Positions 1-12,112 of a DNA stretch of 64,000 bases are shown here, in pieces; positions within the stretch are counted from its first letter, which is position 1; the number at the start of each line of letters is the position of its first letter. The stretch is from an uncultured Gemmatimonadaceae bacterium (lineage in GTDB: Bacteria; Gemmatimonadota; Gemmatimonadetes; Gemmatimonadales; Gemmatimonadaceae). Under the pieces are notes generated by a model. It did no database searches, was not told the origin of the DNA, and was given only the letters and a program-made list of their open reading frames with translations. The position numbers were made by a program, and so were the translations under genes. The stretch is from NCBI GenBank assembly GCA_963781585.1, contig CAWAGQ010000003.1, forward strand, positions 1 to 64,000, written 5' to 3'.

Positions 1-372
1 CCACCCCGGCCACCGAATCGAGCAACGCCACCGCACCGTCCAGCACCCGCAGCGACCGCTCCACTTCGACCGTGAAGTCGACGTGACCCGGCGTGTGGAT
101 GATGTTGATGCGGTACTCCGGACGGCTTCGTTTTCAGTACCGGTTCCATGCCGCCGCCAGAAGCAGGTCGTGGCCGCAGACGTGATGGTGATGCCCCGCT
201 CCTGTTCCTGCTCCATCCAGTCCATGGTGGCGGCACCGTCATGGACCTCCCCCATCTTGTACGACTTGCCCGTGTAGTAGAGAATGCGCTCGGTCGTAGT
301 CGTCTTCCCGGCATCGATGTGCGCCATGATGCCGATGTTGCGATACAGGTCGAGCGGTGTTGTACGTGGCAT
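1..372 (-). CDS. fusA: Elongation factor G, N-terminal part (runs off window)
   Basis: Manual translation from ATG at 372: [35 protein letters not shown]...[19 protein letters not shown]...DTPGHVDF; not in ORF track. Confidence 0.97.
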
Positions 373-612
373 GAGTCTGGTTGAGTCGTGCGCCGGAACG
401 TCGCCGTCAGGCGCCGCGAGCCGGATCGGTGCCGATGTGGTCGGAGCGTGGCGTCCCACGGGCCCGCGCCGCGAGTGCAGCTGTCAATTGTCCGTCCGCG
501 ATCCCGTGGCGACTGCGGCGTTCGCTCAATTGGGGTCCGACCGCCAGCGACGGGCTCCGCATCCACCGCCGCTTCGGACATTCTCGCATCGACGCCGCGT
601 GGCGCCGCCACG

Positions 613-665
613 AAAAACGCGGGTGGACCAGGCGCTCCTTTTGGCAGGAGCCGGTGTCCATCCGC
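613..665 (-). terminator. Putative intrinsic terminator/attenuator hairpin upstream of fusA
   Basis: Minus strand GCGGATGGAC...GCTCCT-loop-AGGAGC...GTCCACCCGC followed by GTTTTT. Confidence 0.45.
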
Positions 666-904
666 CCTCGCCGGGTGCACCCGCTAAAGCGGATGGGGAC
701 CCACGGCGCGCCGAGTGAGCGACCTCGACGATAAATTGTCCTGCGTCGCTTTTCGGGGGGGATCACGCGATCTCGCGCTACCCCGGCCCTTCGAGAAGCC
801 CTCGCGACCGTCGCGAGCCCATGGGAGTCGACGCGCAGTTCGTCGACGTTCACGGTGCTTCCGATGACCAGTCCTGATCGCAAGACGGTCTACGGTAGCC
901 GCTT

Positions 905-933
905 AATTTGCACGGGCGGCAAGGGGAAGTCAA
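905..933 (-). promoter_or_regulatory. Putative sigma70-type promoter facing fusA
   Basis: TTGACT-N17-CAAATT on the minus strand. Confidence 0.45.
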
Positions 934-940
934 CGCTTCG

Positions 941-1077
941 GTTACGCGGGCGGTGGCTCACCGAGCCACTACCGTTACGCGGGGTCATGTCCGGTTCGGA
1001 CAAGACCGTTACGCAGGCCCTGGTAACGGTACCAGTGCCGTTACGCGCGGTAGTGGGCAACGGGGAGAGCCATTGCC
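941..1077. repeat. Array of four GTTACGC linkers, each followed by a variable hairpin
   Basis: GTTACGC at 941, 974, 1008, 1040; stems at 949-973, 983-1007, 1016-1039, 1049-1077. Confidence 0.8.
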
Positions 1078-1180
1078 ATCGACTGGCACCAATCGCGGGA
1101 CCCTGCACCGCAAATCGATGGCGAATGCCCCCCGCCGCTCTTTCACCTACCCGCTGGCAGCCGGCCCCCGCGCGGACTGC

Positions 1181-2389
1181 CTAGCCGGCACTTGGCCGCG
1201 CGAAGAGCACCTCATGAAGGTAGCGGCGCCACGCCACACTCCGACGCGCGTGTCCGGCCATGCGCTTCATCAGGCTCGGCGCCACGCCAGCGGTAACAAT
1301 CTCCTTCGGCGCGTGCCATGGCCGAATAGCACCGTGGCCGCTTCGACGTGGCCGGATGGCGGCGCTCCAGAGCACGGCGCTCAGCTGGTGCGAGGGACAG
1401 AACGCGTCCGACGGCAACAACTGCAACTCGAGATGGCGTGACAGCGGACCAAGCAGGTACTCGCTGCGATAGGGTCTCAACGCCGCCTCCACCCAGGAGG
1501 GCACGTCGAGCCCCCCGCGTGCGTGCGCAACATGAAAGGTCCAGTAGCAGCAGCTGGCTGCATGATGCGCGACCGCCTCGCGCACGATCAGATCCCAGTC
1601 CGTCGCGCCCGCATTCGTCAAAACACTGACATCCCTCACCGCGCGCCAGGCGCCGAAGCGCATCATGTGCGACCAGGCGAAGTGCACACACGTGTGCAGC
1701 AGAGAGTGGGTGGTTGACGGTACGAAGACCGAACCGGGGACACTCTCCAGGCGCCGCGCATCCTGCAGGATCTCGCTCCGGGAAAGGCCAAACCGGTGAC
1801 CCGGCACGAAAAGATCCGTATGCAGCTCCAGCCGCACCCCAGTCCCTTCGCTGTCCAGCAGGGGTGGGCCATGCTGATGCCCCTTATAGCGCCGCCGGGG
1901 ATAGTCGCCCTCTGACTCGACCCACCCAGCTCGACATGCCGCTTCAAACGCGCCCTCCATGTCCTCGGGCGCCACCAGCAGATCCAGGTCCATCATCGGC
2001 CGGTCCGTGAACGACGCATAGACCGTCTTCGCGAGCGCGGCGCCCTTGAGGAGAATCACCGGTACTCGGGCACGGTCGAACTCGCGCAGCGTCGTTTCGA
2101 GGCGGTCACCGAGCAGAGCCGCACGAAACTCGGAGATCGTCGCGAGGCGTGCCAGGCGGATCCGCTGGCTGTCGGGAACCGCCGGCGTTGAAATGGACCG
2201 CAGCTGACGCCATATCACTCCGGCGGCCCCCTCCCGCACCGCCAGCGCGATCAGCAGGTCCCAGTCGATAGACCCCTGCTCCATCTCGGCCTGCATGGCG
2301 CGCACGCCGTTGGGACCCGCGGAGGCCAGGAGCAGACGAGAGGTTGCATTCATGGGCGCGCTCTCGATTGCAGCGAGGAGGGGCAGCAT
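1181..2389 (-). CDS. Nucleotidyltransferase family protein (NTP_transf_5-like), RiPP-cluster associated
   Basis: LLKGAAL and RPMMDLDLLV motifs, ELH; start may be the ATG at 2353. Confidence 0.8.
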   Translation of the reverse strand: MLPLLAAIESAPMNATSRLLLASAGPNGVRAMQAEMEQGSIDWDLLIALAVREGAAGVIWRQLRSISTPAVPDSQRIRLARLATISEFRAALLGDRLETTLREFDRARVPVILLKGAALAKTVYASFTDRPMMDLDLLVAPEDMEGAFEAACRAGWVESEGDYPRRRYKGHQHGPPLLDSEGTGVRLELHTDLFVPGHRFGLSRSEILQDARRLESVPGSVFVPSTTHSLLHTCVHFAWSHMMRFGAWRAVRDVSVLTNAGATDWDLIVREAVAHHAASCCYWTFHVAHARGGLDVPSWVEAALRPYRSEYLLGPLSRHLELQLLPSDAFCPSHQLSAVLWSAAIRPRRSGHGAIRPWHAPKEIVTAGVAPSLMKRMAGHARRSVAWRRYLHEVLFARPSAG

Positions 2390-2392
2390 ACC

Positions 2393-3364
2393 TCAGCCCT
2401 TGGCAACACGTGACTCCGCCAGGACATCACGCTTGGCGGGCGCCGCGGCGTGCCATTCCCTGATCAATGTCACGACTTCCTCCAACCGATCAAGCTCGCG
2501 AGTGATGCTCAGGTCGTACACCGGAACCGTGTCCGCCAGTGCCGCCGCTATCTCGAAAGACCGTGCGGCAGCACGCCCGTCCAGCAGCGAGCCCAGCTTC
2601 CGATAACCAACAAACGTTAGCGCGCTCTCGGTGATGGAGCAACGCGTTCGCGTCGCGGCAGGCGTCCGCGGGTCTACCGGCGCTGGCGCAAGTCGGTAGG
2701 CCGCCTGCAACGGGGTGCGCTCCAGGCCAACCGACGAAACCGCCCCCGGCCGGTACGCCATCTTCCCGCCGAGTCGGGGGTCATGGAAGGGCAGCGCCAC
2801 CGTCGTCGCCGAATCCTCGCGCAGGCGGATGCTCTGTACGCCGGCGCGGAGCAATGGGGGATCCCCCGGATCTACGCTCAGAGTGTCGTCGGTGATGAGA
2901 CGCGCTCCCGACCGCACAAGGGCCGCCGCCAAGGTCGACTTCCCGAAGAACTTCGGTGCCAGAAACGCGATTCCCTGGCCGTCCAGATCCACTGCCGACG
3001 CATGCAGCGTGAGAACACCGCGCGCGTGGAGCGTGAAGGCAAGCACCCGCCCGAGGATGTCGGTGAGGACCGCGTCGCTGGGTTGCACGCCCCCGCTCCA
3101 CCAGGTAATCCGGGTCCCATCGGACGAAAGATCAAATGTCCCGGTGTCGTCGTAGGTGAGACGGTAGCCGGAGCGCGTTTCGTACGATCGGACCATCACG
3201 TCCGTCGTGACGAGTTCCTCGCCGAGTTTCTGCTGAACCACCGCTGGTGCGGGCTCGGCTCTTCGCTCGAGGACGCAATCGAATCGACCCTCCTCGACTG
3301 GCTCCGCGTCAGCGAGGTCAACCTCTGATCGGAGGAGGAGTCCAAAAACAGAATAGGTAGGCAC
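2393..3364 (-). CDS. HPr kinase-like protein (candidate lasso peptide kinase)
   Basis: LHASAV, variant P-loop APKFFGKST, LITDD. Confidence 0.8.
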   Translation of the reverse strand: MPTYSVFGLLLRSEVDLADAEPVEEGRFDCVLERRAEPAPAVVQQKLGEELVTTDVMVRSYETRSGYRLTYDDTGTFDLSSDGTRITWWSGGVQPSDAVLTDILGRVLAFTLHARGVLTLHASAVDLDGQGIAFLAPKFFGKSTLAAALVRSGARLITDDTLSVDPGDPPLLRAGVQSIRLREDSATTVALPFHDPRLGGKMAYRPGAVSSVGLERTPLQAAYRLAPAPVDPRTPAATRTRCSITESALTFVGYRKLGSLLDGRAAARSFEIAAALADTVPVYDLSITRELDRLEEVVTLIREWHAAAPAKRDVLAESRVAKG

Positions 3365-3416
3365 GGCCGGTCGATCAGAGGGGGCGGCAGTTGTCGATCA
3401 TCACTTGGTCAGGCAA

Positions 3417-3433
3417 TGCAAAGCCGACGCCAG
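3417..3433 (-). promoter_or_regulatory. Possible sigma54 -24/-12 promoter for the kinase-nucleotidyltransferase genes
   Basis: CTGGCGTCGGCTTTGCA with correct GG-N10-GC spacing, about 50 nt before the kinase start. Confidence 0.4.
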
Positions 3434-3554
3434 ACGAGCCCGATTTTCACGCAAGCACCGCCTCGGCTGCAGCTCCGAATGGGGGGTTCGATGCTTCCCG
3501 TCGGACCCGCGCCGCTTAGGGCATCGCTGGTTACGGTGCGGCGCCCCCGCAACG

Positions 3555-3597
3555 AAAATGCCGCATCCGCTCTGCAATAGCAGAAGCGGAAGCGGCA
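3555..3597 (-). terminator. Putative terminator downstream of the precursor gene
   Basis: TGCCGCTTCCGCTTCTGC-TATT-GCAGAGCGGATGCGGCA-TTTT on the minus strand. Confidence 0.55.
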
Positions 3598-3713
3598 CAC
3601 CGATGAAGCGGGCTACGCCCTTCAGATAGACCTATGACGCGTCGAGATCAGCAGATCAGGCCAAAGCCGTCGGTCGCGTTACAAGAGTGCTTCCGACGTC
3701 GCACGCCTTCGAC

Positions 3714-3854
3714 TCAGGAACGGGGAGGCATCCCCTTGTCATATCCCTGTCCGGGGTACACCAAGTCCGCCGCAAACAAAACGGTCTTTCCAGGAATGGA
3801 CAGAGTCAGTTCGCGAAAGCTGCCGAACCGCTGTAGCTGGGGTGTCTCGTACAT
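3714..3854 (-). CDS. Lasso-type RiPP precursor peptide, 46 aa
   Basis: MYETPQLQRFGSFRELTLSIPGKTVLFAADLVYPGQGYDKGMPPRS; YxxPxL and Gx5T leader motifs; GGAGG RBS; absent from the ORF track. Confidence 0.88.
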   Translation of the reverse strand: MYETPQLQRFGSFRELTLSIPGKTVLFAADLVYPGQGYDKGMPPRS

Positions 3855-3890
3855 CCTCGCCTCCAGAGAATTAAGATATCCCTAGGTAGT

Positions 3891-3907
3891 AGCAAGTCTC
3901 ATACCAG
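3891..3907 (-). promoter_or_regulatory. Sigma54 (RpoN)-type -24/-12 promoter of the precursor gene
   Basis: CTGGTATGAGACTTGCT matches YTGGYAYR-N4-TTGCW, 36 nt before the ATG. Confidence 0.7.
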
Positions 3908-3956
3908 TCGTGGTCTACCTGCCGCCATGTCTGCACCCACGCTTGGGGCCTCCAAG

Positions 3957-5864
3957 CTAGGCCCGCCGCTCCCGGTCCGCAAGCCATCTCTCGGTCAGCA
4001 AGGTCATCAAAAGTCGCGATCCCAGCAGGTGCCCGCCCTGCTCGGCATATACTGCCGATGCCCGACGGAGCAGACCTACGTCCACGAGGCCCATTCTGAT
4101 GAGAACCGCTGACCCGCCGACGCGGAATGTGGTCTCGATTCGGGACGGAAGCGCCTTGAGCAGGCTGCGCTGGACGTAGTCCACGGGCGCCCCGGTCTTG
4201 GAGGGGCGCGGCGCAAGCACCGAGTCCGGGAGTAGCCCCCGCATGGCGTGGCGGAGAAGCACCTTGATCTCGTCGTTCCGGTTCCGCTCCTCAATGGGCC
4301 TCCGTGCGGCGAATTCGACGATCCGCCGATCCAGGAATGGCGAGCGAAGCTCCACTCCCTCGTCCCAGGCGAAAGCGTGAGTCGCCGACGCCAATCGCCA
4401 GAGCAGTGGGTTCGTGAGCAGATACCGCGCCTCGAACGCGGCGGCGCCCTCCCCGGCCAGTCGAGCGCTCACCGGCGGCCGCAGGGCGCGCGAGAGGCCC
4501 GCCGTGAGACGCAACCAATCGGGCGCGGTGAAATCCCAGAATCCGTGAAGCGGCCGTCCACGGACAGCGCCGATCCAATCGATTGTGTCCGGCGCGAGCA
4601 AGGGAAGGATGCATGCGCGCAGGAAGTCGCGTACGTCGTTTCGGCCCCACTGCCGCCAGGCGGCAACCAGGCGCGAGACCTCACCCCGACGCAGGTGGTC
4701 GGCAAGCACGGCGCTGGATGCCATGAAGAGGAAATCTCCCCCGTTTCCGTCGAAGGCCACACGCGCGCCGAGCGACCGGGTCACCTGAGCCAACCGCCGC
4801 TGCACCGCCTCGAATGGGTGCGCCATCGGGTCGTCGCGCCGCCATGCCATCGCGTCGAGCGGGTCCAGGAGAGGAATATCATCTACGGATAGCCAGCTCA
4901 CGGGCACTCGCCAATGAGCAGCGATCGCCGTAATAAGCTCGTCCTCGCGGCCCCGGTCGCCGGGCGGATACGAAAGCGAAACCGGTAACACTTCCACCGG
5001 CGGTGCACCCCGCGCTGACATCGCGCTCCGTGCCGAAGCGAACAGGGCAGGGGAATCCCAGCCGCCGCTCATCCAGACCACTCCCCTCCCCTGTCTGGGA
5101 AGCCGTGCTACCATCGCGTCCTCCAGCAGGCCGCGCAGTTCCACGGCGCCCTGGTCGAGCGAGCTGCTGTTTCCGCTGTCGGAGAACTCCGTGGGTGCCC
5201 ACTGATGGAGGAGGTACGGCCGCCCTCCGCGCTCGATGCAGACCGTGCCTCCGGGAGGCACTACCCGCACCGCCCCGAATGCTGTTCGATCTCCGGGCAG
5301 CGCCAGCCCCGCGGCTGAGGTCGCGATCATGTCCAGGTCGTAATCCGACGGGACACCCGGAAAGTCTGCCACCGCGCTTGCGGTCGAGGCCACCACCACC
5401 GTGCCGTCGTCCGCCACCGCGTAGTTCAGCGAGCGTCGCCCGCCGAACTCACGCACCAGCAGCAGCCGCCAAGACCTCTTGTCGAAGACGATGAGGGCGT
5501 AGTCACCCTCGAGATGGCGCGCGACGTCGGTGCCCCACACGCGAACTGCCGCGGCCACCAGTTCCGCCGACGCCGAACGGCTGGGCAGCGCCCCACGGTC
5601 GGACAAGCGGCGACGCAAGTCGGCGAGATAGTACAGACTGGCATCAGCGGCTATGACGTGGCTCTCCGTTTCGTAGACGACGGGTCCCGTCCAGCCACTG
5701 AGTTCGGCTTCCCATGGGTGGCGCCCCCCTGCGACCACCGATGAGTCATCGCTCCAGAATTCGATCGACCCGTCCCCGGATGCGAACGTCCCGCCCAGCA
5801 TGGCGGCTACGGCCGTCGGGTTGTCATGGGCGAGCGGCCCGAATGCAGCGGCCAGTGCGGTCAC
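3957..5864 (-). CDS. Lasso cyclase (asparagine synthetase-like, C protein)
   Basis: SGGWDS PP-loop, DGNGGD, RSPFLDRRIVEF, K..LR..M..LLP; GTG start overlaps the B2 stop; no N-terminal catalytic Cys. Confidence 0.88.
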   Translation of the reverse strand: MTALAAAFGPLAHDNPTAVAAMLGGTFASGDGSIEFWSDDSSVVAGGRHPWEAELSGWTGPVVYETESHVIAADASLYYLADLRRRLSDRGALPSRSASAELVAAAVRVWGTDVARHLEGDYALIVFDKRSWRLLLVREFGGRRSLNYAVADDGTVVVASTASAVADFPGVPSDYDLDMIATSAAGLALPGDRTAFGAVRVVPPGGTVCIERGGRPYLLHQWAPTEFSDSGNSSSLDQGAVELRGLLEDAMVARLPRQGRGVVWMSGGWDSPALFASARSAMSARGAPPVEVLPVSLSYPPGDRGREDELITAIAAHWRVPVSWLSVDDIPLLDPLDAMAWRRDDPMAHPFEAVQRRLAQVTRSLGARVAFDGNGGDFLFMASSAVLADHLRRGEVSRLVAAWRQWGRNDVRDFLRACILPLLAPDTIDWIGAVRGRPLHGFWDFTAPDWLRLTAGLSRALRPPVSARLAGEGAAAFEARYLLTNPLLWRLASATHAFAWDEGVELRSPFLDRRIVEFAARRPIEERNRNDEIKVLLRHAMRGLLPDSVLAPRPSKTGAPVDYVQRSLLKALPSRIETTFRVGGSAVLIRMGLVDVGLLRRASAVYAEQGGHLLGSRLLMTLLTERWLADRERRA

Positions 5865-6379
5865 ATTCTCTCGAAAACGTTCAAGCCGTCCACTTCGCGC
5901 AGGTCGGTTACCTCCGACTCCGAGTCGATCAGCTTCGCGCCGGCGTACTCCACCCATGCATGTGCTTTCAAGGCGCCGTCCCGCATCTGGACGCCCACTC
6001 GCACCTGTGCCCCCTGCAGGTGGGCGCGGTCAAGGAGCATGCGTGTGGCAAGCGCCCGCGCCAGGCATGACCCACGGACCAGGCCGTGCTCCGCCACGCG
6101 GCGCACGGCGATGGCGAGCTCGCGCGCCCGGTCAACGCGCTCCGGCAACGTGGCAGCCGACATCCCATCGGGCGTCGGGACCGCCGAAAGCAGCGTACCG
6201 CGTTTCCTGAATCTCAGCGTAAGTCGGGCTTCCACCAGCGCGAGTTGCGCGCGGACCAGGTCGCCCTGTGCCCGTGGCGGGAGCCTACGGAGCGTCCGCA
6301 GGCGATGAAGAATGGCCCGGCCCCTCGACTGGCGTCTCGCCGGCCGCCGATGTGGCCAGCCCCGCGGCCACCAGCTCAC
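5861..6379 (-). CDS. Lasso leader peptidase B2 (transglutaminase-like)
   Basis: CLARALA and AHAWVE catalytic Cys/His motifs; start uncertain, probably nearer 6310. Confidence 0.88.
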   Translation of the reverse strand: MSWWPRGWPHRRPARRQSRGRAILHRLRTLRRLPPRAQGDLVRAQLALVEARLTLRFRKRGTLLSAVPTPDGMSAATLPERVDRARELAIAVRRVAEHGLVRGSCLARALATRMLLDRAHLQGAQVRVGVQMRDGALKAHAWVEYAGAKLIDSESEVTDLREVDGLNVFERM

Positions 6380-6626
6380 GCAGGAATTCGATCGTGTCGC
6401 GGCGAATGCGTTCGATACTCACGTTGGCGAACTCGCGGGCCAGCACCGCGATCATCTCGCTGAAGGTCCTGGAATTCGGCGGCAGCAGGGACCAGATCCG
6501 GGCGCCAACGCGATTCACGCCGAAATACACTTCGTCGTCGGTGGACAGCAGCACGCCGCCCTCGTCGAGTTGTTTGAACACGACCGACGGGCTCGGAACG
6601 GGTAGGGCAAAATCGGATTCGGTCAT
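6285..6626 (-). CDS. PqqD-family RiPP recognition element (lasso B1)
   Basis: LDEGGVLL...YFGVNRVGARIWSLL...FLRELVAAGL; ATG at 6626 with upstream AGGAG. Confidence 0.88.
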   Translation of the reverse strand: MTESDFALPVPSPSVVFKQLDEGGVLLSTDDEVYFGVNRVGARIWSLLPPNSRTFSEMIAVLAREFANVSIERIRRDTIEFLRELVAAGLATSAAGETPVEGPGHSSSPADAP

Positions 6627-6783
6627 GGCTGTGGCCCGCGCTCCTGACGCTGTCCCTGCCGCCGGCGATCCGGGAGGGCTACTGCACTCCTCCAGGACGC
6701 TGACAACCCCTACGTGCACGCGAGGTGCAGACTGCCCGAGTACTTCGACGCCCGGCACGGCCGAGGAGTCACGCCGCCGCGCG

Positions 6784-7254
6784 TTACCAGCGATAGTGCG
6801 CGAACGCCTTGTTGGCTTCCGCCATCCGGTGAGTGTCTTCCTTCTTCTTGATCGCGTTCCCCTCACCCTTCGACGCGGCGATGACTTCAGCTGCGAGCTT
6901 CTCGGCCATTGACTTCTCGTTCCGATCGCGGGAATAGAGAATCAGCCAGCGCATGCCGAGCGCGGTGCGGCGCTCCGGGCGCACCTCGACCGGTACCTGG
7001 TAGGTGGCGCCGCCGACGCGACGGCTCTTCACCTCGACCACGGGTTTGAGATTGGACAGCGCCTGCTTGAAGACGTTGACACCCGGTTGACTGGTGCGCG
7101 ATTCAACGAGGTCCATGGCGCCGTAAAAAATCCGCTCGGCGACCGACTTCTTTCCCTCGTACATGAGGCAGTTGATGAACTTCGAGACGGTCTGGCTGTC
7201 GTAGCGCGCGTCGGCGAGCACCGGGCGCTTGATCCCCTTTTTCCGTCGACTCAC
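6784..7254 (-). CDS. rpsG: 30S ribosomal protein S7
   Basis: [15 protein letters not shown]...[15 protein letters not shown]. Confidence 0.99.
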
Positions 7255-7643
7255 TTCTTTCCTCCGGTGGCGGGCTTGGGCCGCTTGGTACCGTATTTGG
7301 AGCGGCTGCGATTGCGTCCCGTCACGCCGGCGGCGTCGAGCGTGCCGCGCACAATGTGATAACGGACGCCGGGAAGGTCCTTCACCCGGCCACCGCGCAC
7401 CAGCACGATGGAGTGTTCCTGCAGATTGTGTCCTTCACCGGGAATGTAGGCAATCACCTCGAACCCGTTCGTTAGGCGCACCTTGGCGACCTTGCGGAGC
7501 GCCGAGTTCGGCTTCTTGGGCGTGGTGGTATAGACACGCGTGCACACACCTCGGCGAAACGGATTCTGGCGCAACGCGGGCGTCTTGCCCTTTCGGCCCA
7601 CGTCGCGGCGCCCCCGCCGCACGAGCTGGCTGATGGTCGGCAT
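7251..7643 (-). CDS. rpsL: 30S ribosomal protein S12
   Basis: MPTISQLVR...[11 protein letters not shown]...[10 protein letters not shown]. Confidence 0.99.
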
Positions 7644-7697
7644 TCAGTCGGGATTGGACGACAAACACGCCCCGGAGCCGGGGCGCAGGAGACTTGT

Positions 7698-7727
7698 ATC
7701 ATAGACGCGCCCCATGGCGGCAGTCAA
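7698..7727 (-). promoter_or_regulatory. Sigma70-type promoter of the str operon
   Basis: TTGACT-N18-TATGAT, about 55 nt upstream of rpsL. Confidence 0.65.
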
Positions 7728-7792
7728 GGCAAGCGCGAGGGGCTTCGCGTGCCGCGCGACGCCCCTGCGCTCACCGCTGTCCCGCGTCCGCA

Positions 7793-10700
7793 CTATTCTC
7801 CCCCCGGACCCAGCGCGAATCCGCTCTCGGCGAAACTCGACGAGAAGATCCCGGGCAGCGGTGTCTCGATCCCGGGAAGTTCCTCGGGGCGAGGAAGCTC
7901 CTCCCCCTCGATCTCCACCTCCTGGTACCGATACTGCCCGGTGCCGGCCGGAATGAGATGGCCGATGATGATGTTCTCCTTGAGTCCGAGCAGGTCGTCT
8001 TTCGCGCCACGAATGGCAGCGTCGGTCAGAACCCGCGTCGTCTCCTGGAACGACGCGGCCGAGATGAACGACTGCGTGGTCAGGCTCGCTTTCGTGATAC
8101 CCAGAAGCAGCGGCTCGGCGGTGGCCGGCTTGAGCTTCTTCTTCTTCGCCCGCTCGTTCTGTTCCCGGAAGCCCTGCCGGTCCACGTGCTCGCCTTCGAG
8201 GAAGTCGGTGTCAGCCGACTCCACCACCCGGACCTTCTGCAACATCTGCTTGACGATCACGCCGATGTGCTTGTCGTTGATCTTTACGCCCTGCAGCCGG
8301 TACACCTCCTGCACTTCGTTCAGCAGATACTCCTGCACGGCGCGCGGTCCCTTGATCCGCAGAATGTCGTGCGGATTCACGGGCCCCTCGGTGAGCCGGT
8401 CGCCTGCCCGCACCCGGTCGCCCTCGTGCACCCGGAGGTGCTTGCCCGCCGGGACCTCGTACACCTGGGCTTCCTGCGCGTCGTCCACCGCCCACTGCCC
8501 GTCCAGGGACTTGCCGGGGTGCACGAAGATCTCGCGCTTCCCGCGCTTGATGTCACCGAATCGGACGATGCCGTCGATTTCGGAGATGGTGGCCGGGTCC
8601 TTCGGCCGGCGTGCCTCGAACAGCTCGGCGACGCGCGGCAGACCGCCCGTGATGTCGCGCGTCTTGTACGCCTCGCGCGAGATCTTGGCGATGGTCTCTC
8701 CGGCATGGATCGTCTGGCCGTCATCCACCACCAGCTGGGCTCCCACCGGGATGACGAAGTCGCGCACTTTCTTCTCCTTCCCGCCCTTCGACTGCCAGAT
8801 CTCGATGTGCGGATGGAGCCGCTTTTCGCGATCCTCGGTGATCACGCGCTGGCGCAGGCCGGTCAGTTCATCCAGTTCCTCGGAAATCGTCTCGTCCTCC
8901 ACGATGTCGACGAACCGGATGGCGCCCTCCACGTCCGAGATGATCGGATTGGTATACGGGTCCCAGGTGAAGATCGCCTGATCCTTTTTGACTTCCTCGC
9001 CGTCCTTGACGAGCAGCGCCGCGCCTAACGGGACGGCCAGTCGCGCTCCCACGGTAGCGGTGTGGTCGCCCGACGAGCGGATCGTCAGCTCGCCCTCGTA
9101 CGACGTCACGATGCGATGGCCATCGGGGTTCTGCACCGTTACCAGGCGGTCACCGAACTCGATGATGCCGGGGACCTTCGTCTTGCGCACCGTCTGCTCG
9201 GCGATCCGGGCTGCCGTCCCGCCGATGTGGAAGGTACGCAGTGTGAGCTGGGTACCGGGCTCGCCGATCGACTGGGCCGCGATGATCCCCACCGCCTCGC
9301 CCAGATCAACCATGGCCATGGTCGCCAGGTTGCGTCCGTAGCACATCCGGCACAGCCCGCGCGTTGCCTCACAGGTGAGCACCGAGCGGATCCGTACCGC
9401 TTCGATCCCCGCCTCCTCGATGGCGCGCGCCATGTCCTCGTCGATCAGCTGGCCCGCCTCGGCCAGGATGAGCGCGCGACCGACCTCGTCCCGCGCATGC
9501 GGATCGATCACGTCCTCCGCCGCCACGCACCCCACGATCCGCTCCGAGAGGGGCTCGATGATATCCTCGCCCTCCTTCAGCGCCGAGATGTCCAGCCCCT
9601 GGATCGTGCCGCAATCCTCCTCGGTGATCGTGACATCCTGCGCCACGTCCACCAGTCGACGCGTGAGGTAACCGGCATCGGCGGTCTTCAAGGCGGTATC
9701 GGCCAATCCCTTGCGTGCGCCGTGTGTCGAAATGAAGTACTCCAGCACCGACAGCCCTTCCCGGAAGTTCGACTTGATCGGGCTCTCGATGATCTCGCCG
9801 ATGCCGCCGGTAAGCTTCTTCTGCGGCTTCGCCATCAGGCCGCGCATGCCGGCCAGCTGGCGGATCTGATCGCGGCTGCCGCGCGATCCGGAATCGAACA
9901 TCATGAATACCGGGTTGAAGCCCCGATTGGCCTCGCGCATCGTCTTCACCATCGCGTCGGCCACGTCCGAATTGGCGTGCGTCCAGGTGTCGATGACTTT
10001 GTTGTAGCGCTCGCCGTTCGTGATGTTGCCCGTCTGGTACGCGCGCTGGAACCGTTCCACCCGCTCCTCGGCCTCGCCCAGCAGCGTCTCCTTCTCAGGG
10101 GGGATCACCAGGTCCTCCACGCCGATCGAGATCCCGCCGCGCGTGGCGTAGAAGAACCCGAAGTCCTTGAGTCGGTCCAGGAACTCGACCGTCTTGGCCA
10201 GACCGCACTGCCGATACGTTTCGAAGACCAGCTCGCCGAGCGCCTTCTTCTTCATGTCGCGATTCTGGTACTCTATCTCCGTCGGGACGATGGCGTTGAA
10301 CAGTACGCGTCCCGCGGTGGTCACCACCCAGCGCGCGTCGCCGTTGCGGCCGATGGCATATCGTACCGGCGTGTGGTAGGTCACCCGGCCCAGGGACAGC
10401 GCCATCTCCACTTCGGAGGGCGTGGTGAACGATTTCAGCGCCGCCAGGGCCTTGGGATCCCTGGCTGTCTTGTCGAAATCGACCGGCGCCTTGGTCGCGA
10501 AGTAGCACCCCAGGACGATGTCCTGCGACGGCTCGGCGACCGGACGCCCGTCCGACGGTTTCAGAATGTTGTTGGACGAGATCATCAGCAGCCGCGACTC
10601 CAGCTGCGACTCGAACGAGAGCGGCACGTGCACCGCCATCTGGTCGCCGTCGAAGTCGGCATTGAACGCCGCACACACCAGCGGATGGATGCGGATGGCC

Positions 10701-12112
10701 TTGCCCTCGACCAGTACCGGCTCGAACGCCTGAATACCCAGCCGGTGCAGCGTGGGCGCGCGATTCAGGAGCACCGGATGGTCGCGGATGATCTCCTCGA
10801 GGATCTCGTAGACCTCGGGGGATTCGCGCTCGACGATTTTCTTGGCGCGCTTCACCGTCTCGGCGATGCCCTTTTCCACCAGCTTGTGAATGATGAACGG
10901 CTTGAACAGCTCGAGAGCCATCAGCTTGGGCAGGCCGCACTGGTGGAGCTTGAGCTCCGGGCCGACGACGATCACCGAACGCCCCGAGTAGTCCACTCGC
11001 TTGCCCAGGAGGTTCTGGCGGAAGCGCCCCTGCTTCCCCTTGAGCATGTCGGAGAGCGACTTGAGCGGGCGCTTGCCACGACCGCGAATGGCCTTGGACC
11101 GGCGGCCGTTGTCGAACAGCGCGTCGACCGCTTCCTGGAGCATCCGCTTCTCGTTGCGCAGGATGACTTCCGGCGCCCGGTGCAGGATGAGCTTCTGCAG
11201 GCGGTTGTTGCGGTTGATGACCCGCCGGTACAGATCGTTGAGATCCGACGTGGCGAACCGTCCGCCGTCGAGCGGCACAAGCGGCCGCAGATCCGGTGGG
11301 ATCACGGGAATCACGTCCAGCACCATCCACTCGGGACGGTTGCGTACGTCGCCGCTGTCGCCCGAGTTGCGGAACGCGTCGATGATCTTGAGCCGCTTGA
11401 GCATCTGCTTCTTGCGATGCTGCGACGACTCGGTCACCACGGCGGCGCGCAGTTCCTCGGACAGCCGGTCCACGTCCAGACGGCGGAGGAGGTCGCGGAC
11501 CGCGGGGGCGCCGATGTCGGCGTGGAAGACCGCGTCGCCCTCGTCCTTCGCCTTCTGCTTGAGCGCCAGGAAGTCGTCTTCGTCGAGCAACTGGTTCACC
11601 CGCACTTCCTGCTGGCCGGGCTCGATGACGACATAGTTCGAGTAGTAGATGACCTTCTCGAGATCACGCAGCGTGAGGTCGAGGAGGTTGCCCATCGGAC
11701 TCGGCAGGGTCTTGAAGAACCAGATGTGCGCCACCGGCACGGCCAGTTCGATGTGGCCCATGCGCTCGCGGCGGACCTTGGACAACGTCACCTCGACGCC
11801 GCACCGGTCGCAGATCACGCCGCGATAGCGGATCCGCTTGTACTTGCCGCAATGGCACTCCCAGTCCTTCACCGGCCCGAAGATGCGCTCGCAGAACAGC
11901 CCGTCCTTCTCGGGCTTGAACGAGCGATAGTTGATCGTCTCGGGTTTGGTGACCTCGCCCCACGACCACCACGAGCGGAGCCCCTGCATCTCGAGGCGTT
12001 CCCGCTCCTTGGCGTCCTTCGGGCCGCGGATCTCCTCGGGCGAGGCGATCCGCACCTGGATGAAATCGAACGATGACGCACGCGCTTCGCGCGCACTCCG
12101 GAAATCGATCAT
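7793..12112 (-). CDS. rpoC: RNA polymerase beta' subunit
   Basis: NADFDGD catalytic motif, zinc-binding Cys motifs, GEPGTQLT. Confidence 0.99.

Follow-up and report, generated by a model that had tools for sequence, protein, structure and literature searches.

A lasso peptide cluster with kinase and nucleotidyltransferase genes between rpsG and fusA in Gemmatimonadaceae

Why does a biosynthetic gene cluster separate rpsG from fusA in a Gemmatimonadaceae genome, and does its position say anything about the target of the encoded peptide? The locus lies at the start of the window, by which we mean the whole analyzed stretch of 64,000 nucleotides from an uncultured member of the family. Genes on its minus strand follow each other in the order rpsL, rpsG, B1 (PqqD), B2 (protease), C (cyclase), A (46-aa precursor), K, N, and fusA, with rpsG ending at 6784 and fusA starting at 372, a gap of ~6.4 kb. 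We consider it probable that this is a genuine, selectively maintained lasso cluster of the phosphorylated/glycosylated type (B1-B2-C-A-K-N), belonging to an old, vertically inherited Gemmatimonadaceae lineage that has occupied the stretch between rpsG and the fusA leader since early in the history of the family. While the enzymes themselves are of a familiar type, the str-operon context is new: in searches of the full text of open-access papers and bioRxiv preprints, no mention of a RiPP cluster within the str operon came up. The locus thus represents a rare case of specialized metabolism long carried within an operon that ranks among the most conserved in bacteria.

Gene content of the interval and soundness of the assembly

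A first-pass annotation had placed six lasso cluster genes between rpsG and fusA, and all six are confirmed here on the minus strand, which also carries the other window features described below. The claim of a lasso RiPP cluster also stands, since B1, B2, C, and A are each assigned by HMMs. On the upstream side, the ORF of rpsL (ribosomal protein S12; 7251..7643), the first gene of the str operon, is 100% identical to its same-genus orthologue, and rpsG (ribosomal protein S7; 6784..7254) matches PF00177 (1e-64) and TIGR01029 (215 bits against a cut-off of 135.85). On the downstream side, the 5' part of fusA (EF-G; 1..372) aligns with positions 1 to 75 of TIGR00484 (8e-39) and is cut by the contig end.

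B1 (6285..6626; 113 aa) is a PqqD-like RiPP recognition element matching PF05402 (3e-13; 50.2 bits, cut-off 23.4), with the lasso PqqD models NF033530 and NF033536 scoring below cut-off. B2 (5861..6379) is a transglutaminase-like leader peptidase (NF033537, 54.6 bits against a cut-off of 33; PF13471, 2e-14) whose start is uncertain and whose ORF shares 95 nt with the 3' end of B1. Its Cys, His, and Asp residues were found by eye in the translation (GSCLARA..., KAHAWVEY, and ...LID), in a spacing that we take to be that of McjB. The Asn-synthetase-like lasso cyclase C (3957..5864, the ORF being open back to an ATG at 5957) matches PF00733 (4e-28; 99.4 bits, cut-off 21), and its translation has an SGGWDS motif. 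The lasso cyclase model NF033535 scores 117.7 bits, under its cut-off of 525. The most likely start of the cyclase is GTG 5864, which would give a 635-aa protein whose start codon overlaps the B2 stop as GTGA; the same-genus orthologue is also 635 aa long, at 78 to 79% identity.

The precursor gene A (3714..3854), preceded by a GGAGG upstream of its ATG, encodes the 46-aa peptide MYETPQLQRFGSFRELTL-SIPGKTVLFAADLVYPGQGYDKGMPPRS, which matches the lasso leader model NF033521 (28.5 bits against a cut-off of 19). K (2393..3364; 323 aa) is an HPr-kinase-like peptide kinase with matches to TIGR04352 (4e-11) and PF07475 (1e-4) that are both below cut-off, and its P-loop region can be aligned with HPr kinase 1ko7 (E = 0.0015). 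N (1181..2389; 402 aa) starts 3 nt past the K stop and is an NTP_transf_5 nucleotidyltransferase-like enzyme (PF14907, 8e-36) with a Gly...DLD motif; no relative with a solved structure was found for it. From N to fusA there are 808 nt. Within the rpsG-fusA interval of the window, we observe no further credible gene, and the earlier statement that it holds no integrase, transposase, transporter, or isopeptidase is borne out.

Could the arrangement be produced by a chimeric assembly? The window begins at a contig end, with fusA continuing on contig C4, which overlaps window positions 1 to 726 at 98.4% identity. In addition, there are frame errors in fusA and tuf (last ~130 nt of the window and first ~2.7 kb of contig C4), and contamination of the assembly is estimated at 7.2%. 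However, independent assemblies of many other species show the same rpsG-cluster-fusA order, so the arrangement is not an assembly chimera; moreover, both junctions lie well within contig sequence, and contigs C3 and C4 are concordant over the fusA leader. We assign chimeric junctions a negligible probability.

Placement and inheritance across Gemmatimonadaceae

The flanking genes and their order are those of the canonical str operon (rpsL-rpsG-fusA-tufA). Unlike in that operon, the link between rpsG and fusA is always broken in Gemmatimonadaceae, and fusA is equipped with a promoter-like box and a structured leader. That the cluster interrupts rpsG-fusA is supported by two sister families of the same taxonomic order, in which 21 of 24 genomes keep the two genes about 110 to 355 nt apart, the other three being unmeasurable. 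In Gemmatimonadaceae, the gap ranges from 538 nt to 15.2 kb in all 24 genomes with both genes on one contig. In an unbiased sample of 36 genomes of the family, to which the window was added, 27 genomes were resolvable at this site, of which 7 have full clusters and 3, from three other genera (G009, G025, and G024), have remnants (B1/B2/ABC/N without C and K). In 10 of the 27, the slot is filled by unrelated genes, among them kinases, amylases, peptidases, and a 15-kb catabolic block, and some of the genes run on the opposite strand.

In a second, cyclase-seeded set of 80 loci from related species, rpsG and/or fusA stand beside the cluster in 38 loci. All 38 are co-oriented, 37 lie between rpsG and fusA, and 23 are bracketed by both genes. 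The gene order of a genome from the same genus (G001) is identical to that of the window. Some related clusters have extra genes on either side, with 1.3 to 7.5 kb between rpsG and B1 in some relatives, and gene order is rearranged within the window's wider clade. A second type of str association is seen at a locus of another Gemmatimonadales lineage (L103), where the cluster is directly upstream of rpsL. The first-pass annotation had reasoned that a variable location in relatives would remove the significance of the position; instead, the slot is occupied by the cluster in the same genus and in many Gemmatimonadaceae genera.

Cyclase divergence tracks rpoC divergence across 19 loci (Spearman 0.83, with none of 2,000 permutations as high), which points to old vertical inheritance. 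Since rpoC is physically linked to the cluster, such co-divergence would also be expected from transfer of the whole region. In a tree of 87 cyclases, str-located members fall into several all-str clades, one of them the window's clade of nine, and those from clusters at other sites group in a separate supported clade of 18 (10 elsewhere and 8 of unresolved location). The str/elsewhere label requires five changes on this tree, whose backbone is without resolution, so that it does not prove that the str placement arose only once.

The same lack of backbone resolution leaves room for another account of the shared position, namely repeated independent insertion of mobile lasso clusters at a recombination hot spot downstream of rpsG. 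It draws further on the hypervariable rpsG-fusA gap of the family with its many kinds of cargo, on the extra genes flanking the cluster in some lineages, and on the rearranged gene order in the wider clade. We nevertheless judge repeated insertion to be improbable, given the strong correlation of cyclase and rpoC distances and the large clades of str-located cyclases that are free of clusters located elsewhere. Furthermore, no integrase, transposase, or flanking repeat is seen in the window, nor is there a compositional anomaly, the G+C content of the cluster being 0.59 to 0.72 and that of the contigs 0.66 to 0.68.

Precursor, tailoring enzymes, and exporter loss

The leader of the precursor displays a YxxPxL motif and a Thr two residues ahead of the canonical cleavage site. 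Tyr2, Pro5, Leu7, and Thr17 match the rule given in PMC10368454 of YxxPxL at positions -17 to -12 and Thr at -2. Cleavage at this canonical site, with Tyr at -17 and Thr at -2, leaves SIPGKTVLFAAD as the core, which has no Asp or Glu at positions 7 to 9, its first acidic residue being Asp12. The precursor thus breaks the textbook ring rule unless cleavage is shifted. Cleavage three residues later would make a Gly1-Asp9 ring possible and satisfy the acidic residue rule, and our preferred reading is a putative core GKTVLFAAD.... This later site is favored by conservation across the window's clade, whose precursors share a segment [G/T/D]K[T/D/R]....D separated by 0 to 12 variable residues from the ELTx end of the leader. 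Within the genus, the two species share the ring segment GKT.LF.AD as well as PPRS at the C terminus, and the three residues before Gly differ; an RS ending is common to most precursors of the clade, which departs from the usual leader-core rule. Between genera, the core peptides are hypervariable and almost completely different, as in ordinary antagonistic RiPPs.

Judged from its sequence, the cluster is of a known type, that of the kinase/nucleotidyltransferase-tailored lasso clusters such as those of paeninodin, pseudomycoidin, and Bsf. In paeninodin-type systems, as presumably in the window, an HPr-kinase-like enzyme modifies a serine of the precursor, though these systems belong to a different phylum and are unconnected with ribosomal operons. 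Their clusters contain an exporter and are not known to include N. They are named, from Paenibacillus, Thermobacillus, and Sphingobium, as the characterized phosphorylated lasso systems in PMC10368454.

The psm cluster of Bacillus pseudomycoides resembles the window in having split B1/B2, a cyclase, the kinase PsmK, and the nucleotidyltransferase-like PsmN. PsmK phosphorylates the C-terminal Ser, to which PsmN adds one or two hexoses, according to the review PMC9266682 (see also PMC6993621). As in psm, Ser is the last residue of the window precursor, whose gene stands ahead of K and N, and K orthologues come after the precursor in 37 of the 38 related str-located clusters. In contrast to the window, psm belongs to a Bacillota host and lies outside the str operon, and it is the window core that has no acidic residue at positions 7 to 9 after the canonical site. 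The one label that N shares with PsmN is the annotation "nucleotidyltransferase", PF14907 being the family assigned to the window protein.

The bsf cluster of Bradymonas sediminis and other Bradymonadales shares with the window a Gram-negative host, K, and the YxxPxL leader, with N and D in some members. BsfK acts on the precursor with B1 assisting, and Ile is tolerated at -2 in place of Thr, according to PMC10368454; at -2, the window would have Ile if cut before Gly, and the same-genus genome Thr. Unlike what we propose for the window, BsfK targets core Ser3 and the ring is Gly1-Asp8, and the excerpts of PMC10368454 mention no str-operon context. By analogy with these systems, B1 would bind the YxxPxL leader, K would phosphorylate a serine, most likely the C-terminal one, B2 would remove the leader, C would close the isopeptide ring, and N would decorate the phosphoserine.

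In 36 of the 38 related str-located clusters, an ABC ATPase and an ABC-2 permease are encoded between K and N. Neither the ORFs nor a profile search reveal an ABC exporter in the window's cluster, and the cluster-type ABC-2 permease has no homologue anywhere in the 93.5%-complete assembly, where the best ATPase hit is 40% identical. The earlier observation of a missing exporter is right for the cluster; as a design feature of the system it fails, since the presence of the ABC pair in 36 of 38 relatives makes its absence a lineage-specific loss. Because both species of the genus are without the pair, this loss appears to be older than their split. The exporter D is not strictly defining for phosphorylated/glycosylated lasso clusters, as the mmv cluster of Bradymonadales also lacks it (PMC10368454).

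Given the loss, the cluster of this genus may instead be a decaying relic, with an uncyclizable precursor and no mature product. Consistent with decay, K and N are only 3 nt apart where related clusters hold the ABC pair, the canonical core is devoid of a suitably placed acidic residue, clear cluster remnants occupy the same site in the three genera mentioned above, and the related bsf cluster gave no mature product in several hosts, according to PMC10368454. However, each of the six genes is intact in both species of the genus, its length unchanged between them, at dN/dS of 0.13 to 0.33 (B1, 0.27; B2, 0.33; C, 0.25; A, 0.15; K, 0.17; N, 0.13, each against the same-genus orthologue) and dS of up to 0.5 to 1.15, which indicates purifying selection since the two species split. 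Decay is also at odds with the retention of ring segment and C terminus next to changing residues before Gly, and with the presence of the catalytic motifs of B2, C, K, and N. We therefore hold a relic to be unlikely, and a maintained pathway raises the question of what would become of a lasso peptide once its exporter is lost.

Transcription, position, and the fusA leader RNA

A promoter-like TTGACT-18-TATGAT precedes rpsL (7727-7698; consensus scan only). The 157-nt spacer between rpsG and B1 (6627..6783), 86.5% identical to that of the same-genus genome, has no terminator-like fold: positions 6634 to 6783 fold no more stably than shuffled sequences (z = +1.64; 194 of 200 fold as well), and a terminator scan detected none there. 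With no terminator in this spacer and overlapping B1, B2, and C frames, it is plausible that read-through from rpsL-rpsG and the str promoter would transcribe B1, B2, C, and A. Such read-through cannot be general, because other genes intervene between rpsG and B1 in some relatives. The 3' side of the precursor gene carries a strong hairpin followed by AUUUUCGUU (3551..3598), a likely attenuator or terminator that would attenuate transcription into K and N. The fold of positions 3535 to 3615 reaches -45.5 kcal/mol (z = -4.9), with none of 200 shuffles as stable, and the stem and U-run lie in a stretch of ~56 nt that is exactly conserved with the same-genus genome inside a block of 81% identity. 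The locus raises the question of whether output of an antibiotic-like peptide is tied to ribosomal-protein transcription.

The use of the position as a pointer to a target in transcription or translation, as the first-pass annotation had suggested, is not supported. The family gap is never below 538 nt, and with unrelated genes in 10 of 27 genomes the slot is permissive, so position alone is no indicator of a target. We see it as a permissive, highly transcribed slot that was taken early by the cluster, and any link between the cluster and the translation machinery is speculative.

Lasso peptides that target RNA polymerase are known, namely microcin J25 and capistruin. The clusters of these two and of lariocidin carry immunity or export genes, and we know of none among them that is located in a ribosomal operon. 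Lariocidin hits the ribosome (PMC11451635), and the analogy that the first-pass annotation drew with all three is one of possible activity, not of sequence or context. With these precedents, the position could be functional and the peptide could act on the transcription or translation apparatus, either as a secreted antibiotic from which the producer would be protected by adjacent alleles of rpoC, rpsL, rpsG, or fusA, or as an intracellular, growth-coupled modulator in exporter-less lineages, made in step with ribosomal proteins. A functional position would agree with the co-oriented str placement kept across many genera, with the second str association upstream of rpsL, and with purifying selection on every gene of the cluster in a genus that has dropped the exporter. 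It is nonetheless doubtful in our estimate, in view of the unrelated cargo in the slot and of cores so different between genera as to argue against one conserved housekeeping target. In addition, a paralogous lineage with the same enzymes lies elsewhere, with no str genes within about 8 to 10 kb, the neighbors in the window are single essential copies and not extra resistant ones, and fusA is insulated by its own leader. Still less probable is the specific proposal that an ancient, co-diverging str resident, co-transcribed with S12 and S7, yields, in lineages without the exporter such as this genus, a modified peptide that stays inside the cell and acts on the producer's own ribosome, EF-G, or RNA polymerase; were this true, the peptide would be made in proportion to ribosome synthesis, as a growth-coupled modulator and not as a secreted antibiotic.

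Under our preferred reading of a permissive slot, fusA would be expressed from its own promoter together with a conserved leader RNA. A promoter-like TTGACT-17-CAAATT, read from the sequence, lies upstream of the leader (905..933) within a block that shares 91.6% identity with the same-genus genome; a stricter promoter scan did not flag the site. Across 51 aligned regions upstream of fusA, at least half retain the TTGAC box. The structured leader itself (611..741), ending in a terminator-like stem and U-run, is found in all 51 of these regions and has no match in Rfam. RNAalifold applied to 41 of the 51 leaders gives 31 pairs, 14 of them with compensatory double changes, which makes the leader a well-supported candidate cis-regulatory RNA. 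How fusA gained independence from rpsG is a further question raised by this locus. A search with the leader model R1 recovers a single copy in each of 31 of the 36 family genomes, in every case upstream of fusA, and the leader remains attached to fusA whatever genes precede it.

The rpsG-fusA interval and its junctions

The lasso peptide cluster between rpsG and fusA is real and of a known enzymatic kind; its genomic setting is unusual and conserved, its exporter has been lost in this lineage, and its leader-core junction is non-canonical. It is probably functional. The window makes up the first 64 kb of contig C3 in its source assembly (17 contigs, 5.7 Mb, contig G+C of 66 to 68%), which has an estimated completeness of 93.5% and an estimated contamination of 7.2%. 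On the minus strand of the window, the ORFs of rpoC (7793-12112), rpsL (7251-7643) and rpsG (6784-7254) are followed by the PqqD-like gene B1 (6285-6626; PF05402, 3e-13), the leader protease gene B2 (5861-6379; NF033537 lasso B2, above cut-off), the cyclase gene C (3957-5864, in an ORF open to 5957; PF00733 asparagine synthase, with the lasso cyclase model NF033535 matched below threshold), the precursor gene A (3714-3854; NF033521 lasso leader, above cut-off), the HPr-kinase-like gene K (2393-3364; a weak HPr-kinase-related match, with a P-loop that aligns to HPr kinase 1ko7) and the nucleotidyltransferase-like gene N (1181-2389; NTP_transf_5 PF14907, 8e-36). Beyond an 808-nt non-coding stretch, fusA runs from 372 past the contig end, also on the minus strand. 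Against solved structures, K gives weak HPr-kinase P-loop matches only, and no relative was found in the same kind of search with N.

These ORF calls and HMM assignments agree with the first-pass annotation, which had described a six-gene lasso set at this site; the assignment to lasso families stands for B2 and is reached only sub-threshold for C. ORF and HMM searches of the 6.4-kb interval reveal no further credible gene and, as had also been noted there, no integrase, transposase, transporter or isopeptidase. The G+C content of the cluster ranges from 0.59 to 0.72, with its minimum around the precursor, and its composition is not foreign-looking. A second precursor or other small gene in the 349-nt spacer between A and K was considered and rejected: tblastx against the spacer of the same-genus genome G001 scores about equally in every frame, and the conservation is therefore at the nucleotide level (a hairpin) and not coding.

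The first 726 nt of the window match the start of contig C4 of the same assembly, in reverse orientation, with 9 mismatches and 3 gaps among 729 aligned columns (98.4% identity), and both fusA, which is cut at the contig end, and tuf go on in C4. Reading frames are damaged at both contig ends, fusA being split into four frame pieces and tuf into two within C4:1-2700. Such breaks could mark fusA as a pseudogene, a reading we reject on the grounds that they are limited to the two overlapping contig ends, that the overlapping copies disagree with one another at 12 columns and that tuf is affected as well; the breaks in both genes look like contig-end (polishing) errors. The cluster and both its junctions lie outside the frame-damaged stretch. 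An assembly chimera at these junctions, which the first-pass annotation had named as a way for its reading to fail, is excluded because the same rpsG-cluster-fusA order recurs in many independent assemblies.

Occupancy and descent of the site

The cyclase, rpsG and the N-terminal 75 residues of EF-G served as queries against 60 relatives, and genes in the retrieved regions were located with tblastn and an ORF picker that relies on GC3. Pfam was run on 97 of 102 gap ORFs, the five left out being same-genus genes already identified. The order contains two sister families, and in 21 of their 24 genomes the rpsG-fusA distance is ~110 to 355 nt, with the two genes on separate contigs or unmatched in the remaining three. 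Of the 37 Gemmatimonadaceae genomes, 24 have rpsG and fusA on a common contig, with gaps of no less than 538 nt: 538, 587, 844, 1026, 1045, 1118, 1179, 2843, 3113, 3277, 3488 and 4426 nt in the lower half, and 4445, 4499, 5922, 6130, 6414 (the window), 6541, 6639, 7404, 7816, 7837, 7942 and 15212 nt in the upper half. The gaps of 1026 and 1179 nt belong to genomes flagged as unpublished (G035 and G034), and the argument stands without both.

Three more genomes could be resolved on a single side, which brings the resolvable total to 27. The synteny comparison proposed in the first-pass annotation places a full lasso cluster at the same site in 7 of these 27, namely the window's own assembly (G000), G001, G016, G028, G036, G014 and G006. 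In three others the gap holds what is left of a cluster that lacks C, A and K: B1, B2, the ABC ATPase and N in G009 (locus L056), B2, the ABC-2 permease and N in G025 (L064), and B2 and N in G024 (L072). In these remnants the most persistent part is N, which adjoins the fusA leader. Unrelated cargo, partly on the opposite strand, fills the gap in 10 of the 27 and includes Ser/Thr kinases, amylases with an MFS transporter, peptidases, a beta-lactamase-family protein, a glycosyltransferase, an FMN dehydrogenase and a 15-kb catabolic block. The gap measures merely 0.5 to 1.2 kb in the last seven (G003, G004, G007, G015, G022 and the two unpublished genomes).

A wider search was seeded with an alignment of six str-located cyclases, taking one genome per species and 10-kb flanks. 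It returned 80 loci, nearly all from Gemmatimonadaceae or Gemmatimonadales MAGs, and rpsG and/or fusA are present in 38 of them (both genes in 23, rpsG only in 7, fusA only in 8, the one-gene loci being cut by contig ends). The other 42 include many short contigs and ~12 loci with full flanks and no str genes. All genes lie on one strand in each of the 38 str-associated loci, and the cluster sits between rpsG and fusA in 37. The usual order is rpsG, B1, B2, C, A, K, ABC ATPase, ABC-2 permease, N, ~0.3 to 0.6 kb of DNA and fusA. In 10 loci, rpsG and B1 are set apart by 1.3 to 7.5 kb of other DNA, and in 5 the last cluster gene is more than 1 kb from fusA; the distance at L077, counted among these 5, is an artefact produced by the choice of best hit. 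Two loci with the arrangement, L080 and L142, come from MAGs that bear the label Gemmatimonas aurantiaca. The one locus of the 38 in which the cluster is not between rpsG and fusA, L103 (L103:9886-21787, from a Gemmatimonadales MAG outside the family), carries a complete cluster (C, B1, B2, K, the ABC pair and N) directly upstream of rpsL, with an opposite-strand MFS gene after rpsG; it is a second kind of str-operon association.

In a FastTree phylogeny of 87 cyclases (89 distinct sequences minus two shorter than 450 aa), str-located sequences fall in several clades that hold no sequence located elsewhere. The window's clade is entirely str-located (9 sequences), a clade of 28 comprises 20 str-located and 8 of unresolved location, and a clade of 9 comprises 7 and 2, respectively; a supported clade of 18 has 10 located elsewhere and none in str. 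The location label requires five changes on this tree, the backbone of which is unresolved. For the 19 str-located loci with at least 480 residues of the rpoC C terminus, pairwise cyclase distances (0.14 to 0.67) correlate with those of rpoC (0.015 to 0.23) at a Spearman coefficient of 0.83, a value reached in 0 of 2,000 permutations. This correlation is consistent with long vertical descent and fast divergence of the cluster, with the caveat that rpoC is physically linked to it. The position of the cluster is inherited, and it does not identify the target of the peptide.

Transcription signals and the fusA leader RNA

The rpsG-B1 spacer folds no better than its shuffles (z = +1.64), and a consensus scan finds a promoter-like site upstream of rpsL. 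A putative GGAGG ribosome-binding site precedes the precursor, and the precursor is followed by a hairpin (3551-3598; -45.5 kcal/mol, z = -4.9) and then AUUUUCGUU; this hairpin lies inside a ~56-nt stretch identical to G001, and the surrounding block has an overall identity of 81%. Taken from sequence, these features would fit read-through from str into B1-B2-C-A, which would then be attenuated before K-N, and the position may couple expression of the cluster to the str promoter. Downstream of the promoter-like site (7727-7698) and ahead of rpsL, we also observe a GC-rich hairpin with a T-run (7666-7687, minus strand), which might terminate rpoC transcription or form part of an rpsL leader.

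On the fusA side, alignment of the 450-nt regions that precede fusA at 51 Gemmatimonadaceae loci reveals an element of 130 to 185 nt in all 51, irrespective of what precedes it (e.g., L039:14317-14447). RNAalifold on 41 of the 51 regions predicts 31 pairs, and compensatory double changes occur at 14 of these. The fold opens with a variable hairpin; next comes an invariant helix (CGCC..GGGU / ACCC-GGCG) around a variable hairpin, and then a long, terminator-like stem (GCGGAUGGA... / ...UCCACCCGC) around another variable hairpin, followed by a U-run. The window's copy spans 611-741 on the minus strand (z = -2.8). A covariance model of the element (R1) matches 31 of 36 family genomes, with a single copy in each that invariably sits immediately before fusA; the two matches in the window's own genome are the two overlapping contig ends. 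Of the five genomes without a match, G029 has a truncated fusA match (from query residue 12), and G010, G023, G027 and G033 have no fusA match at all. Rfam yields no known RNA family in window 1-8000 at E <= 1, and at E <= 10 window 560-960 returns only a chance-level RAGATH-16 match (16 bits). Comparison of the fusA leader with the rest of the genome, including rRNA, gives chance-level short words only.

With weaker scores, R1 also matches genomes of the two sister families (5 of 12 in one, 1 of 12 in the other), where the element sits within the short spacer between rpsG and fusA, and the leader RNA is therefore an older rpsG-fusA intercistronic element. In Gemmatimonadaceae it is preceded by ~200 nt with a TTGAC box (window 928-933). 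Every insertion is found further upstream than this stretch, which explains why the slot tolerates cargo in either orientation. That fusA has its own leader weakens the idea that it is co-expressed with the cluster. The RNA is a candidate leader or attenuator of fusA. The E. coli str operon is autoregulated, and by that analogy our guess is that S7 might be a protein partner.

Directly upstream of the TTGACT box, the window carries four GCGTAAC copies (941-1046, minus strand), 32 to 34 nt apart and each followed by a short inverted repeat; G001 has one degenerate copy beside the box. These repeats may be a regulator-binding array. The distance from the leader U-run to the fusA ATG is ~238 nt in the window (373-610) versus 36 nt in G001. 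The window's assembly also encodes three further EF-G-like genes (C9:3164-5233, C10:39895-41319 and C10:21849-22973), of which the C9 copy is intact, falls just below the EF-G cut-off and is 29 to 48% identical to str-linked fusA.

Selection, exporter loss and the precursor

Each of the six genes is intact in both the window and G001 and has the same length in the two, with dN/dS values of 0.27 (B1), 0.33 (B2), 0.25 (C), 0.15 (A), 0.17 (K) and 0.13 (N) and dS of 0.12 to 1.15. The ABC pair is present in 36 of 38 related str-located clusters and absent from the window, where 3 nt separate the K stop from the N start, and from G001. Because both same-genus species are without it, the exporter appears to have been lost before they split, and the pathway has remained under purifying selection since then. 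No relocated exporter was found, in that the 93.5% complete assembly holds no homologue of the cluster-type ABC-2 permease elsewhere; its best ATPase match has 40% identity.

By analogy, the enzymology of the cluster matches that of phosphorylated lasso peptides. Passages of PMC9266682 describe PsmK as phosphorylating the C-terminal Ser and PsmN as adding a hexose to the same Ser, and this review leaves open whether PsmN is a true glycosyltransferase; BsfK modifies its precursor with the help of B1, according to PMC10368454. Sections of PMC11316326 that report lasso clusters in 29 marine Gemmatimonadota MAGs make no mention of their position, and in searches of the main texts of open-access papers and bioRxiv preprints we found no work that connects rpsG, fusA or the str operon with lasso clusters.

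Precursor leaders are near-invariant across the family (MYxxPxLxRFGTFRELT), and core peptides are hypervariable. Most cores have Asp8, counted from the canonical site, and many have two or three Cys or end in ...RS. In the window's clade, by contrast, a variable spacer of 0 to 12 residues stands between ELTx and the conserved segment [G/T/D]K[T/D/R]....D; the junction reads SIP|GKTVLFAAD in the window and QTA|GKTLLFTAD in G001. Lasso rings comprise 7 to 9 residues, and to our knowledge no known ring is as large as 12. Cleavage before Gly, which from the sequence would give a 25-residue class II core with a Gly1-Asp9 ring, is the somewhat more probable reading, because the canonical site would need a ring to position 12, beyond known sizes. 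Applied to the window, the Tyr(-17) rule for leader cleavage, as given in PMC10368454, starts the core at Ser and puts the first acidic residue at position 12. Cleavage before Gly leaves Ile at -2 in the window and Thr in G001, both workable residues according to that paper.

Further non-canonical precursors of the window's clade occur at L040, L074, L075, L076, L047, L130 and L143. Some clusters of this clade have two B1 genes, two K genes and two precursors, and one precursor core is glycine/phenylalanine-rich (GFWNFFGGGFGGFGG...).
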